Virus record (IMG/VR): IMGVR_UViG_3300035682_001995
Strand: one strand, 5' to 3'
DNA from: a virus
Length of the DNA: 17,607 bases
Shown here: piece by piece, positions 4,434 to 14,813 of the stretch
Layout: each line of letters starts with the position of its first letter
Position numbering within the stretch: position 1 is the first letter of the stretch
The notes under the pieces: generated by a model
Told to the model about the DNA's origin: nothing
The model's input: the letters and a program-made list of their open reading frames with translations, nothing else
The model's database searches: none
Made by a program: the position numbers and the translations under genes

Positions 4434-4558
4434 TGGTAGGCCCCCTCCGGTTCGAACGGAGATATGCTCGCTTATAGTTTGGGGATTGAGGAGTTGAACC
4501 TCATTGTGTAACCTACATCCCCCGAGGCGAGTTCATTCACCAATTATGATAGAGGCCC
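4434..4558 (-). tRNA. tRNA-Pro (anticodon CGG) with a 48-nt insert between positions 37 and 38 (insert 4473..4520). CCA is encoded.
   Basis: Hand-folded cloverleaf. Acceptor: GGGCCTC/GGGGCCT (two G-U pairs). D-arm: TCAT-AATTGGTGA-ATGA. Anticodon stem: CTCGC...GCGAG, with loop CTCGGG + insert + A. Variable region: CATAT. T-arm: CTCCG-TTCGAAC-CGGAG. Then A-CCA. Confidence 0.6.
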
Positions 4559-4575
4559 TTACCAACTGTTCATAT

Positions 4576-4602
4576 ATTATGTGCTAGATATGGGTTTGTC
4601 AA
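4576..4602 (-). promoter_or_regulatory. Sigma70-like promoter upstream of tRNA-Pro: TTGACA-N15-CATAAT (or N17-TAATAT).
   Basis: Minus strand reads gtgTTGACAaacccatatctagcaCATAATatatgaacagttggta, followed by the tRNA 5' end. Confidence 0.35.
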
Positions 4603-4706
4603 CACATAATATATAAATAAAGATGGTAATCCTGTTGCTACGAACAACAGGAAACCCGGCTTGGAGCCCCAGGCTGTCCCACACATATATTTACTTGGAG
4701 ATTCCT

Positions 4707-5195
4707 ATGTTTATCAATAACAAATATACCTCTTGGTATATCTCATTGGTTAGTAATGCTCAAACTAGAAATTTAGATAGATCTGTCTATACTGAAAAAC
4801 ATCATATTATTCCCAAGAGCCTAGGGGGCAATGATGCAAAAGATAATCTTGTTAGACTTACTGGCAAAGAACATTTTGTAGCACATTTATTACTTACCAA
4901 AATGACCTTTGGGGTCAATGCAAGAAAAATGGCCTTTGCCTTGTGGCGGATGACACAAGATAATAAGAAACGAGACAGGTTCCGAATGTCTTCTCGGCAA
5001 TATCAAAATATCAAAACTGGCATGAGCGAGGCAATGAAGGTACATAACAAAGGCAAGAAACTTTCTCCAGAGCATATTCAGAAAGTAAAAGAGGGAATAG
5101 CAGCAAAAGGCGGGGCACATAATAAAGGCAAATCTATGAGCGAGGATCAGAAACACACGCGCCTTTTGGCTAGGGGTGATTGGGAATGTTCATAA
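4707..5195 (+). CDS. HNH homing endonuclease with NUMOD3-like repeats. It ends at a TAA that interrupts a NUMOD3 motif.
   Basis: Translation reads MFINNKYTSWYISLVSNAQ...EKHHIIPKSLGGNDAKDNLVRLTGKEHFVAH (the HNH motif), then repeated GKKLSPEHIQKVKEG / GKSMSEDQKHTR blocks. GGAG sits 6 nt upstream of the ATG at 4707. The track ORF starts at 4623. Confidence 0.8.
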   Translation: MFINNKYTSWYISLVSNAQTRNLDRSVYTEKHHIIPKSLGGNDAKDNLVRLTGKEHFVAHLLLTKMTFGVNARKMAFALWRMTQDNKKRDRFRMSSRQYQNIKTGMSEAMKVHNKGKKLSPEHIQKVKEGIAAKGGAHNKGKSMSEDQKHTRLLARGDWECS

Positions 5196-5444
5196 GAAAC
5201 TCGCCAAAAAATATCTCAAGGGGTTAAGAGAAGAGCCGCAGATAGATCTAAACCCTATCAGAAAGGCATTCCTAGATCTCGTATGACATTTGTGTTACAG
5301 AATTCAATTACTCAAGAGCAGGTGGAAACCTGTAATTTGAGACAGTGGTGTGTATCCCAAGGATTCTCTAGTGGCATGATTTATCTGAATAAATCTCCCT
5401 GGAAGATAATATCCAAGGTACCCTTACATAAGGGACAATTGTAA
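5196..5444 (+). pseudogene. In-frame continuation of the HNH endonuclease after the TAA (likely the C-terminal DNA-binding part). Together this is a nonsense-interrupted homing endonuclease gene.
   Basis: The frame stays open for 82 codons right after the TAA. It reads S*ETRQKISQGVKRR...LRQWCVSQGFSSGMIYLNKSPWKIISKVP. A TAA-to-GAA change would restore a perfect NUMOD3 core (SEETRQKIS). There is no independent start or SD. Confidence 0.45.
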
Positions 5445-5462
5445 TCAAATAGAGAAAGAAAA

Positions 5463-5488
5463 GGCCGGAGAAGTTTCCTTCTCCGGCC
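5463..5488 (-). terminator. Rho-independent terminator for the MVP-like gene. Perfect 11-bp stem (GGCCGGAGAAG-tttc-CTTCTCCGGCC), followed on the minus strand by TTTTCTTTCTCTATTT.
   Basis: The inverted repeat is seen directly, 28 nt downstream of the MVP stop (5516-5518). Confidence 0.6.
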
Positions 5489-5515
5489 ATTCCCAAGTAG
5501 TATTGGATCTGCTTG

Positions 5516-13168: not shown

Positions 13169-13513
13169 CTAGGAGAAAAAAGTAATAAACACTTGTTCAT
13201 CAACTAGATTGCGGCTTTCTCCCCACCAGATCTTACAATCTGGCCACATCAATGCCAAGGTTGTTACAACATCCCTGTCACGCACATAAAATTCATAATC
13301 TTCCACACTCCTGCCAGGAACTATAACAGAACTGCTGGAGCCACCTAGGCTGATTGTGCCTGTATTGCTGTCTAGCACATCCCACACCCATCTATCGCCG
13401 TAAATTACTCCTTGTGGATCCTCATCACTGTTCAAATAGTCAAGAACAGCATGTCGAGTATTGCCTATGTCAGGGTAAGGAAAACTCAGGATCACTTTGT
13501 GCCAACACCGCAT
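13169..13513 (-). CDS. Hypothetical protein (114 aa from the ATG at 13513). The start is uncertain.
   Basis: The first ~53 codons of the track ORF 13169..13792 are read across tRNA-Leu(TAG), so the true start must be downstream. The first ATG after the tRNA is at 13513. No recognisable motif. Confidence 0.35.
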   Translation of the reverse strand: MRCWHKVILSFPYPDIGNTRHAVLDYLNSDEDPQGVIYGDRWVWDVLDSNTGTISLGGSSSSVIVPGRSVEDYEFYVRDRDVVTTLALMWPDCKIWWGESRNLVDEQVFITFFS

Positions 13514-13634
13514 TTCAGCATAGTTATCACAAGTTTGGATATCAAATGCACAGTTACTCCTTGGCCGGACGGTTATGTTTTCTGCAATTCCTTCTAGGTC
13601 TTTTCGCACTGCATTTCTTCTATTACTAGTTGAT

Positions 13635-13774
13635 TGGTGCCCCCGGCCCGATTTGAACGGGCACAGCCTTTCCAGGCCAGCGGATTTCTGTTGGACTATC
13701 AGGATTGAACTGATATGAGCACCTGTTGCTCTTGTCCCTAAGTCCGCGTCGTCTACCGATTCCGACACGGGGGC
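13635..13774 (-). tRNA. tRNA-Leu (anticodon TAG; class II with a long variable arm) with a 51-nt insert between positions 37 and 38 (insert 13686..13736). CCA is encoded.
   Basis: Acceptor: GCCCCCG/CGGGGGC. D-arm: TG-TCG-GAATCGGTAGA-CGA, close to E. coli tRNA-Leu GGCGGAAUUGGUAGACGCG. Anticodon stem: GCGGA...TCCGC, loop CTTAGG + insert + A. Variable arm: GCCT-GGAA-AGGC. T-arm: GCCCG-TTCAAAT-CGGGC. Ends A-CCA. Confidence 0.6.
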
Positions 13775-13886
13775 AAACTCTACTATCTTCATAGTAATAT
13801 AGTATCATAGTTTAGTCAACTGTATAAATATAGGTACGGATCACGATGCGCCAACATCCATCCGCTCTAGACAAGAAAGGAAGATC

Positions 13887-14561
13887 ATGTCCAGCGTAAC
13901 TGATATTTATTCTATCTGCCCCAAGTGTGGCAATAGTTTTGATCCCTATTCCAAATATGGTGCCAAGAAATTCTGTAGCAGAAAATGCGCCAATGCGAGA
14001 ATACATTCACAAGAAGTAAAAGACAAAATTAAATCAAAATTGAAAGGAAGACCTAGCCACAATAAATGATTGCCATCTCCCAACCGTGGAAAAAAATTTG
14101 GATCTAAAAAAGATATAATTAAGATTTGCCCCATTTGTTCTAAATCATTCTCGGCAGCTAGAGTTACCTGTTCGAGAATCTGTTTCAAACAAAGAGCAAC
14201 AGAAAATGCACTCAAACAAGAAAAACATGGAGGAGGACACAAGGGCAAATACAAAGGATTTCATTGTGATAGTACATATGAACTAGCCTTTGTGATTTGG
14301 CATTTGGATCATAATATTGAGATTGCTAGATCAACTTCTGTGTATGATTACACCTACAAGAACAAAAAACACAAATATCGTCCTGATTTTGTAGTGGAAG
14401 GTGTGGAAATTGAAATCAAGGGATTTATGAGCAAGAGAGCTCAAGCCAAAAAGGATCAATGTCCCAATGTTATGGTAGTGGATAAGATAGACATACAAGT
14501 CTACATCAAGTATGTTCGCGAAACATACAAAGTAAGAGACCTGCGGAAGTTGTATGAATGA
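13887..14561 (+). pseudogene. Homing-endonuclease-like gene: tandem zinc ribbons plus a NUMOD-like motif plus a PD-(D/E)xK nuclease domain. It is split by an in-frame TGA at 14067-14069.
   Basis: Track ORFs 13887..14069 and 14070..14561 are in the same frame (...GRPSHNK*LPSPNRGKK...). Duplicated CPKCGNSF...CSRKC and CPICSKSF...CSRIC ribbons. NUMOD-like HSQEVKDKIKSKLKG. YRPDFVVEGVEIEIKG fits the PD...ExK pattern. SD AAAGGAAG lies upstream of the ATG at 13887. Confidence 0.5.
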
Positions 14562-14588
14562 TCACAGTAACATAATACTGCAAAGAAT

Positions 14589-14663
14589 TGGAAGGGGTGC
14601 CTCGATTTGAACGAGGACTAAAAGATTCAAAATCTTTTGTGCTAACCATTACACTACACCCCC
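14589..14663 (-). tRNA. tRNA-Gln (anticodon TTG). No insert. CCA is encoded.
   Basis: Acceptor: GGGGGTG/CACCCCT (G1-U72). D-arm: GTGT-AATGGTTA-GCAC. Anticodon arm: AAAGA-TTTTGAA-TCTTT. T-arm: CCTCG-TTCAAAT-CGAGG. Ends T-CCA. It sits 12 nt downstream of tRNA-Leu(CAG) on the minus strand, so the two are probably co-transcribed. Confidence 0.8.
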
Positions 14664-14675
14664 GTGGTATATTTT

Positions 14676-14813
14676 TGGTGCCCGAAGCCAGATTTGAACT
14701 GGCATTGTCTTTCAACAAACGGTTTTTGTTTAGGCTATTGGGAGTGACCCAACAAGGGTATCAAAATACCTTGCCTCTGAGACCGTCGCGTCTACCGATT
14801 CCGCCATTCGGGC
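14676..14813 (-). tRNA. tRNA-Leu (anticodon CAG; class II) with a 51-nt insert between positions 37 and 38 (insert 14725..14775). CCA is encoded.
   Basis: Acceptor: GCCCGAA/TTCGGGC. D-arm: TG-GCG-GAATCGGTAGA-CGC. Anticodon stem: ACGGT...ACCGT, loop CTCAGA + insert + A. Variable arm: TTGT-TGAAAG-ACAA. T-arm: GCCAG-TTCAAAT-CTGGC. Ends A-CCA. Confidence 0.6.

Follow-up and report, generated by a model that had tools for sequence, protein, structure and literature searches.

Interrupted tRNA genes with tRNA-shaped inserts and neighbouring nuclease genes in a freshwater phage genome

We analysed a stretch of 17,607 nucleotides (nt), IMG/VR virus record IMGVR_UViG_3300035682_001995, hereafter called the window, which comes from the genome of a freshwater bacteriophage that is probably a jumbo phage. 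It carries five transfer RNA (tRNA) genes on the minus strand, spread over three separately promoted loci, and three nuclease genes of low GC content on the plus strand, i.e., opposite to the tRNAs (Table 1). Three of the tRNA genes hold an insert in the anticodon loop. A first-pass annotation of the window, made from the sequence alone, had described the five tRNAs, inserts in some of them, and the three nuclease genes, and all of these are real. It had also noted that the tRNA loci are paired with nuclease genes, and indeed each of the three lies within 150 nt of a tRNA gene. Its further claim, that decayed nuclease genes go together with insert-bearing tRNAs, did not survive the comparison with related genomes that is presented below.

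Standard tools miss or misname the interrupted genes. With default settings, ARAGORN called only tRNA-Arg(UCU) and tRNA-Gln(UUG) in the window. The search with Rfam added a tRNA at 14679-14813 (44.8 bits for a threshold of 29, with 53 extra nt in the anticodon loop), and the genes at 4434-4558 and 13635-13774 were absent from the matches to the Rfam tRNA family (RF00005) even at E <= 1. In other words, two of the three escape default ARAGORN as well as Rfam, and the third escapes default ARAGORN only. In its intron mode, ARAGORN revealed three genes interrupted by introns of 48, 51, and 51 nt (4434-4558, 13635-13774, and 14676-14813, respectively the first, second, and third interrupted gene in what follows). 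Their exons are intact, every form spliced in silico is called as a standard tRNA, and CCA is encoded in all five tRNA genes of the window. Promoters of the sigma-70 type match the consensus at 12/12 positions for tRNA-Arg and at 10/12, 9/12, and 11/12 positions for the first, second, and third interrupted gene.

Table 1. Features of the window, in order of position (MFE, minimum free energy; R1, covariance model described in the text).
Feature	Position	Strand	Evidence and remarks
PTH2-like peptidyl-tRNA hydrolase	2509-2976	+	
Interrupted tRNA, 48-nt intron	4434-4558	-	ARAGORN intron mode; R1 60 bits at 4467-4531; segmentation check
Intron of the preceding tRNA	4476-4523	-	MFE fold, pair counts, segmentation; coordinates from tRNA start and segmentation
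Promoter of the same tRNA, sigma-70 type	4574-4602	-	TTGACA-17-TAATAT
HNH homing-endonuclease-type gene, free-standing	4704-5444	+	phrog_655, 1e-42 (4704-5195); Pfam; in-frame TAA at 5193-5195
Major-vault-protein (MVP)-like protein	5516-8086	-	MVP shoulder domain, 3.7e-19
PP-loop (TilS-like) ATPase, 200 amino acids	8046-8648	-	
Homospermidine synthase	9884-11287	-	
tRNA-Arg(UCU), uninterrupted	11966-12043	-	Default ARAGORN; Rfam; consensus promoter at 12067-12094
GIY-YIG homing-endonuclease-type gene, intact, 280 amino acids	12173-13015	+	Pfam GIY-YIG and NUMOD3; phrog_314, 2e-47
tRNA-Leu with 51-nt intron (13688-13738)	13635-13774	-	ARAGORN intron mode; R1 59.1 bits; promoter-like site at 13791-13819
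Conserved 37-nt element CGGATCACGATGCGCCAACATCCATCCGCTCTAGACA	13837-13873	+	Directly upstream of the ribosome-binding site of the next gene
Nuclease with two zinc ribbons and C-terminal PD-(D/E)xK domain	13887-14561	+	Invariant motif E..PD..ExK; TGA at 14067-14069
tRNA-Gln(UUG), uninterrupted	14589-14663	-	Default ARAGORN; Rfam; 28 nt from the stop codon of the preceding gene
tRNA-Leu with 51-nt intron (14727-14777)	14676-14813	-	Rfam 44.8 bits; R1 58.8 bits; promoter at 14864-14892

Shape and recurrence of the inserts

The inserts form a class of miniature tRNAs without an anticodon arm. Each opens with a G, after which come an acceptor-like stem, a mimic of the D-loop with GG, a T-arm mimic stacked on the 3' strand of the stem, and four unpaired nucleotides. 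The insert of the first interrupted gene is composed of a G, the stem GGGGAT/ATCCCC, the loop AGGTT, the T-arm mimic TGAGG-TTCAACT-CCTCA, and the 4-nt overhang AACU, with a coaxial stack of 12 positions. In MFE folds, all three window inserts show the same elements: a closing stem, then a hairpin or loop, then another hairpin that resembles a T-arm. The stack of stem and T-stem extends over 12, 11, and 10 positions in the window introns, and over 12 in 7 of the 11 introns overall. The closing pair of the T-arm mimic, which resembles G53-C61, is invariant, and two of the three window introns have TTCRANN as the loop of this mimic. An AGGT or GG motif, read by eye from the aligned inserts, occupies the place equivalent to the D-loop. 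The inserts thus have the shape of tRNA-like substrates of RNase P (acceptor/T-stem stack of about 12 base pairs, T-loop, and G53-C61 pair), and cleavage by this enzyme is predicted.

We aligned with MAFFT six anticodon arms that carry inserts, which represent five tRNA types in four contigs. All 77 of the 77 cells in the anticodon, closing, and T-like stems are standard pairs, and 11 of the 13 pairs have compensatory changes on both sides. Pairing falls to 30-55% in controls where the partner is slid, a contrast that is somewhat inflated because the fold was read from the same six sequences as the pair counts. When the inserts were shuffled, a T-arm-like hairpin stacked on the closing stem was found in 4-11 of 200,000 sequences. 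The covariance model R1, for which these six sequences served as input, identified in the window just the three known copies, at 58-60 bits, and the next match had 13.8 bits. R1 matches below about 27 bits proved to be ordinary tRNAs and were discarded.

The same architecture is present in unrelated IMG/VR phages (contigs L208, L234, L248, where it occurs twice, L155, and L222), as well as in a tRNA of L138. A descriptor search gave 14 distinct matches in 2.35 Mb and none on the reversed sequence. Two contigs have complete tRNAs nested in anticodon loops (L204 4972-5124 and L164 4995-5145), which in L204 consists of a tRNA-Phe ending in ACCC within a tRNA-Arg(UCU). In L264 (4687-4837, minus strand) and L265 (about 3715-3835, minus strand), tRNA-Gln(UUG) genes adjoining intact homologs of the PD-(D/E)xK nuclease have homologous cloverleaf-like introns of 64-75 nt between U33 and U34, and ARAGORN miscalls these tRNAs as His or undetermined. 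Across the class, the length of the introns ranges from 44 to 75 nt and grades into complete nested tRNAs. The interrupted genes are kept across lineages whose homospermidine synthases are only about 70% identical. These elements probably represent a widespread and poorly understood class of tRNA-shaped introns.

Known types of introns and ribozymes do not account for the inserts. When the whole window was searched with Rfam, no family besides tRNA was found in or near them at E <= 1, and hence they are neither group I introns nor a known small ribozyme. Their 48-51 nt also compare with at least about 200 nt in group I introns. Among the small self-cleaving ribozymes, neither the hammerhead nor the twister, pistol, hatchet, or HDV-like types gave an Rfam match at E <= 1, and no CUGANGA...GAAA core could be seen by eye. 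Introns of the bulge-helix-bulge type, which have two bulges of 3 nt around a 4-bp helix and a canonical position of 37/38, were rejected on account of the asymmetric internal loop (3-5 vs 8-10 nt), the inferred junctions at 33|34, 34|35, and 35|36, and the bacterial promoters.

The extent of the introns can be described by a rule of geometry. The intron is taken to start with a single nucleotide ahead of the stem (G in every case), to include both strands of the stem and whatever lies between them, and to finish with the one nucleotide opposite the first (N72) and four more. It would then have the ends of a mature tRNA, and its splice sites would equate to tRNA positions +1 (5') and 76 (3'). 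This rule, made post hoc and with two free offsets, leaves an exact 7-nt loop with U33 and a purine at 37 in 11 of the 12 interrupted tRNAs. The 4-nt overhang in L208 is UCCA. The two Gln genes have their predicted junction at 33|34 and the two Leu genes of the window at 35|36, while 34|35 applies to several of the others. Since its place varies along the anticodon loop, it is fixed relative to the intron and not to the anticodon.

The choice of the junction changes the anticodon, which can be CAU, CGU, or CGG in the first interrupted gene, UAA or UAG (UGA at the earliest junction) in the second, and CAA or CAG in the third. The names Pro(CGG), Leu(TAG), and Leu(CAG) given in the first-pass annotation hang on an arbitrary junction, and both synteny and splice geometry favour CAU, UAA, and CAA instead. 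The rule predicts CAU for the first gene (loop CUCAUAA, joined as CUC|AUAA) and for its syntenic counterpart in L138, which with the usual junction would be called Pro(CGG) and Ser(CGA). It predicts Leu(UAA) for the second gene (joined as CUUA|AAA) and Leu(CAA) for the third (CUCA|AAA), in agreement with the uninterrupted Leu(UAA) of L260-262 and the uninterrupted Leu(CAA) of L260 and L014 found at the matching places. For L264 and L265 it predicts UUG, and there the tRNA bodies and the position are those of tRNA-Gln. Codon use in the confident open reading frames (ORFs) of the window fits the anticodons predicted by the rule: CCG accounts for 5 of the 149 proline codons, being the rarest of them, UCG occurs once, AUG 104 times, AUA 25 times, and UUG 88 times. 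With the usual junction, the tRNAs at the locus of the first gene, in the window and in L138, would serve codons that are almost unused. A nearest-neighbour BLAST search with the exons as queries and 1,392 tRNAs as targets gave no decisive identity for the first tRNA.

Our searches also retrieved elements of other kinds. The pattern GGAATYGGTAGAC...GTTCRAATC led to a different, hypervariable family resembling tRNA-Leu, in which the intron calls of ARAGORN are unreliable. It is present in more than 120 phage contigs (L017-L136; e.g., L017 729-832, L129 6321-6445, and L046 948-1074) and combines an acceptor stem like that of tRNA-Leu (often AGTCAGG/CCTGACT) with the D-arm GGCGGAATTGGTAGACGC, a Bacteroidota-like T-arm, and 75-105 hypervariable nt between the arms, with no evident anticodon arm. 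Some members are part of large arrays of tRNAs and reach 38-50 bits with the tRNA model of Rfam. They may be more intron-bearing tRNAs or a separate family of tRNA-like RNAs. A pattern with a double T-loop was abandoned, as it mostly found tRNAs followed by a duplicate of their own 3' part. Finally, tRNAs located directly downstream of nuclease homologs in L276 (3187-3282), L281 (3187-3283), and L286 (622-717) have a different insertion of 21-22 nt, which lacks a T-arm mimic and makes the anticodon stem longer (GTGAT...ATCAC).

Nuclease genes and inserts across related genomes

The HNH and GIY-YIG genes encode a catalytic domain and lie outside any intron or intein, as is characteristic of free-standing homing endonucleases. 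The reading frame of the HNH gene continues past the TAA for 82 further homologous codons, as seen in the alignment with an intact homolog of 254 amino acids in L138 and a paralog of 248 amino acids in L012. The GIY-YIG gene matches the NCBIfam model grpIintron_endo with an E-value of 1.6e-12, which is under the cutoff of that model. The third nuclease has the E...PD...(D/E)xK motif on a restriction-endonuclease-like fold that defines the PD-(D/E)xK superfamily, and its best fold matches are the DNA nucleases TnsA, Bax1, I-Bth0305I, and Vsr. Sequence searches of PDB and NCBIfam with this protein were empty, and Foldseek found nothing significant in PDB. A recoding of stop codons was ruled out as the source of the in-frame stops, since TAA, TAG, and TGA each terminate other genes of the window. 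By our rough count of the intergenic slots, the chance that all three nuclease genes fall next to tRNAs is roughly 0.02.

To trace the state of these genes in close relatives, we used sibling contigs that were retrieved by exact-protein look-ups and are 99.6-99.9% identical to the window. The HNH gene is interrupted by a nonsense codon, as the first-pass annotation had stated, and the TAA is also in all five sibling contigs. The TGA that it reported in the zinc-ribbon nuclease is equally present, but it results from a single G>T change (GGA>TGA) that is private to the window. In six near-identical contigs this gene is intact, encodes 224 amino acids, and lies beside the same interrupted Leu genes. 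Similarly, L138, whose homospermidine synthase is 71% identical to that of the window, has the intact HNH gene beside the interrupted tRNA at the syntenic site. Decay of the nuclease and presence of the insert are therefore not associated. The nuclease is also intact beside uninterrupted orthologous tRNAs in L260-262 and L014. L260-262, where the nuclease is 65% identical, have the order Leu(UAA), nuclease, Gln, Leu(CAA) and zero inserts. In L014 the third interrupted gene is replaced by an uninterrupted tRNA-Leu(CAA) of different sequence, with flanks almost identical up to the borders of the tRNA. The association is not clean even within the window, where the insert-free tRNA-Gln adjoins the TGA-interrupted gene. 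Covariation across related genomes had been named beforehand as the comparison on which the association would stand or fall, and it shows that inserts and nuclease state vary independently. Hence, the association is an artefact of reading a single assembly, and the nonsense mutations of the nuclease genes are incidental. This negative result matters precisely because a link between nuclease decay and inserts had arisen from one assembly.

The mobile history proposed in the same annotation stands in part, as the nuclease genes do travel within tRNA clusters as cassettes. The block 11941-13037, comprising tRNA-Arg and the GIY-YIG gene, gives way in L012 and L014 to the intact HNH paralog of 248 amino acids, and no tRNA was found there. 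This swap occurs in contigs that are 99.9% identical elsewhere, which is the presence/absence polymorphism, along with co-conversion of the flanks, expected of homing endonucleases. The part of this history that linked the inserts to nuclease decay has to be dropped, and so does the suggestion that they are relics of endonuclease genes, because they are conserved structured RNAs with compensatory changes and no similarity to nuclease coding sequence.

We collected 80 distant homologs of the PD-(D/E)xK nuclease from metagenomes. Of their loci, 68 have flanks on both sides, and in 62 of these a tRNA lies no more than 400 nt away. Most of the 149 adjacent tRNAs have no insert. This unnamed family of zinc ribbons plus PD-(D/E)xK appears to be specialised on tRNA arrays. 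In these homologs (L266-L345), the adjacent tRNAs are mainly Glu(UUC), Asp(GUC), Gln(UUG), and Pro(UGG), and are mostly on the same strand as the nuclease gene (131 vs 18), opposite to the arrangement in the window lineage. Among other contigs, L208 has a GIY-YIG gene next to its insert-bearing tRNA, and in L234, L222, and L138 this neighbour is an HNH gene, as compared with endonucleases in 2 of the 30 ORFs flanking ordinary tRNA clusters. The enrichment is only suggestive: Fisher's exact test gives p = 0.05, and 0.13 without the window, and a per-locus binomial test that excludes the window gives p = 0.02.

As part of the explanation that we favour, for which the chances seem about even, the HNH, GIY-YIG, and PD-(D/E)xK genes would be free-standing selfish genes of the homing-endonuclease type that colonise tRNA clusters and shuffle tRNA cassettes, presumably by cleaving DNA. 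The pairing of endonuclease genes with tRNA clusters is an ordinary phenomenon that was already known. The SegB gene of T4 is located within the tRNA cluster of this phage (PMC2330249), and the same enzyme amplifies tRNA loci (PMC13096335). As in that system, we find GIY-YIG or HNH genes among tRNA genes, polymorphic between related phages, and carrying flanking tRNA genes along. In contrast to SegB, the cleavage activity and target sites of the window nucleases are putative, and they include a third family with zinc ribbons and a PD-(D/E)xK domain.

The 37-nt element upstream of the zinc-ribbon nuclease contains the inverted repeat GCGGAT...ATCCGC. It is identical in the window, L260, and L263 although the nucleases are 50-65% identical, is diverged in L264, and in the relatives lies just upstream of position 4001. 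It may serve as an operator, as a hairpin acting on translation, or as the homing site. In L263, a 3' fragment of a tRNA (...CCCCCAGCCA) abuts the element, and a GOLLD RNA with an inner tRNA (2937-3403, minus strand; Rfam 177 bits) lies in a 1.1-kb gap beside the nuclease homolog.

Candidate excision route and rival explanations

The reading that we favour, with roughly equal chances of being right or wrong, is that the inserts are genuine introns of a recurrent tRNA-shaped class, with splice sites that would be set by their shape, and that the nuclease genes are ordinary selfish neighbours. Enzymes that process tRNA ends are proposed for the excision because the splice sites would be set by a tRNA-like shape. 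RNase P would cut the 5' end of the intron, at the equivalent of position +1, an activity of tRNA 3'-end maturation would cut its 3' end, at the equivalent of position 76, and an RNA ligase, of a type that large phages commonly encode, would join the 3'-OH to the 5'-phosphate in the anticodon loop. T4 RNA ligase 1 is known for sealing such ends in an anticodon loop. RNA ligases accompany tRNAs in jumbo phages (PMC7824862), and Lak megaphages encode a T4-type RNA ligase (PMC6784885; bioRxiv 10.1101/356790). A broader and more tentative proposal, which we regard as possible but not probable, is that large phages use a protein-dependent splicing of tRNAs new to the bacterial world, made of RNase P, a 3' activity, and a phage ligase, and that homing endonucleases spread the intron alleles.

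Several observations weigh against these introns being spliced by virtue of their shape. The third of the window introns lacks a canonical T-loop, N1:N72 is mismatched in the window lineage (G:A or G:G), and the MFE z-scores of the inserts alone (-0.4 to -3.1) are modest and not decisive. The geometry rule, besides being post hoc, is broken by L234 and seems not to fit L164, where the leftover outer loop would have 10 nt. To our knowledge, no bacterial endonuclease routinely cuts right after a 4-nt 3' overhang other than CCA. Within the 17.6 kb of the window, to which this search was confined, there is no RNA ligase gene. As for the selfish neighbours, the excess of endonucleases beside insert-bearing tRNAs is no more than suggestive, with or without the window in Fisher's test.

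The strongest competitor, which we nevertheless find rather doubtful, is a collaborative homing or immunity in which the insert breaks the site of the neighbouring endonuclease and thereby protects its allele, whereas insert-free alleles of co-infecting phages are cut and converted. Such a process would be compatible with splicing of the RNA. It has a parallel in the cyanophage psbA intron and its endonuclease F-CphI. Another is the trans-homing of a defunct intron endonuclease by mobE (PMC2790892). It would explain the endonucleases beside insert-bearing tRNAs in the window, L138, L208, L234, and L222, including the binomial result obtained without the window, and the allele swap placed exactly at the tRNA borders in L014. 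It would not explain why L260-262 have an intact nuclease next to Leu, Gln, and Leu tRNAs that are all uninterrupted, why tRNA-Arg and tRNA-Gln of the window have endonuclease neighbours and yet no insert, why most tRNAs adjacent to the PD-(D/E)xK family are insert-free, and why L248, L155, L204, and L164 have no recognisable endonuclease neighbour; the Fisher value of 0.13 counts against it too. Less probable still, and in our view unlikely, is that the interrupted genes are dead or do not decode, either because a small tRNA-derived mobile element disrupted them or because they act unspliced as decoys or regulators, e.g., against anticodon nucleases. Bacteria are not known to have a machinery that splices such introns, the anticodon is hidden by the insert, and with the usual junction the Pro tRNA would read the rarest proline codon of the window, all of which would suit a non-decoding element. 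The undecayed exons, the own promoter, the encoded CCA, and the conservation of the genes across lineages do not, and neither do the compensatory changes in the stems or the exact canonical 7-nt loop restored in 11 of 12 cases, for which an element that is not spliced would give no reason.

Two further explanations seem to us very improbable. The one offered in the first-pass annotation was a homing of endonuclease genes into tRNA genes followed by their decay, of which the inserts would be leftovers or marks. Within the window alone it looks attractive, because both stop-bearing nuclease genes neighbour interrupted tRNAs. The sibling contigs refute it, the TGA being private to the window, and it conflicts with the intact HNH gene beside the interrupted tRNA in L138, with the uninterrupted Leu(CAA) beside the same nuclease in L014 and L260, and with inserts that covary at the RNA level and bear no likeness to nuclease coding sequence. 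The other would have the protein with zinc ribbons and PD-(D/E)xK domain process the RNA of tRNA precursors, perhaps as the intron endonuclease, and not act as a DNA homing endonuclease. Its canonical metal-dependent PD-(D/E)xK motif and its DNA nuclease fold matches speak for DNA as the substrate, the gene is present where the neighbouring tRNAs are intron-free, and it is knocked out in the window, where the introns are kept.

We know of no introns in tRNA genes of bacteria and phages other than self-splicing ones. The closest precedent for the tRNA-shaped introns is in Lak megaphages, where 'enigmatic introns' interrupt tRNA genes. It was noted that one of them 'may encode a tRNA' and that introns are perhaps common in large phages (Devoto et al. 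2019, PMC6784885). The window inserts correspond to the definition of these introns: they lie in the anticodon loop of tRNA genes of a large phage, their presence is polymorphic between close relatives, and they match no known ribozyme family. What differs from the Lak report is the structural class and the splice rule, the size of 44-75 nt of the mini-tRNAs, and a freshwater lineage unrelated to Lak, the two sets being likened by description and not by sequence. Our literature searches on phage tRNA introns found neither a mechanism nor a structural definition.

Bacterial group I introns also occur in tRNA anticodon loops, e.g., in tRNA-Leu(UAA) (review PMC3984707; Patescibacteria PMC13011429). 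They share with the inserts the position in or beside the anticodon of bacterial-type tRNA genes and, sometimes, a homing endonuclease, whereas their self-splicing, their larger size, and their Rfam matches set them apart. Short introns in the anticodon loop that pair with anticodon-proximal bases are likewise found in Archaea and eukaryotes, where EndA or Sen removes them. The inserts differ from these in having no bulge-helix-bulge, a variable position, sigma-70 promoters, and encoded CCA. The tRNA-like module of MALAT1, mascRNA, is released by RNase P and RNase Z. This module and the tRNA embedded in GOLLD resemble the inserts in being an acceptor/T-arm stack with a T-loop inside a larger transcript. 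Their flanks are not rejoined, in contrast to those of the inserts, which are two tRNA halves that would need ligation. If the tRNA-shaped introns are indeed spliced in the proposed way, they would represent a new mode of intron removal, using enzymes that every cell has plus a ligase. This would explain the 'enigmatic' introns of megaphages and provide a simple rule for their annotation.

Genome context and companion genes

Matches to Pfam and PHROGs indicate a tailed phage of a bacterium, as they include a tail-spike-like protein, the vault-protein-like protein of 856 amino acids, and a cell-wall hydrolase. A near-DNA search of the INPHARED phages gave a single match, which covers 42 nt of tRNA-Arg. 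Among IMG/VR relatives, the vault-like protein retrieved two loci at 59% identity, both without tRNAs, and the neighbouring protein of 155 amino acids retrieved none. Homologs of the homospermidine synthase are found on lake-metagenome contigs of up to 462 kb. The related jumbo-phage contig L138 has a tRNA of the amber-suppressor type, with anticodon CUA (18182-18256); the window itself shows no signs of recoding. The PP-loop enzyme would be noteworthy if the tRNA at 4434-4558 truly carries the anticodon CAU.

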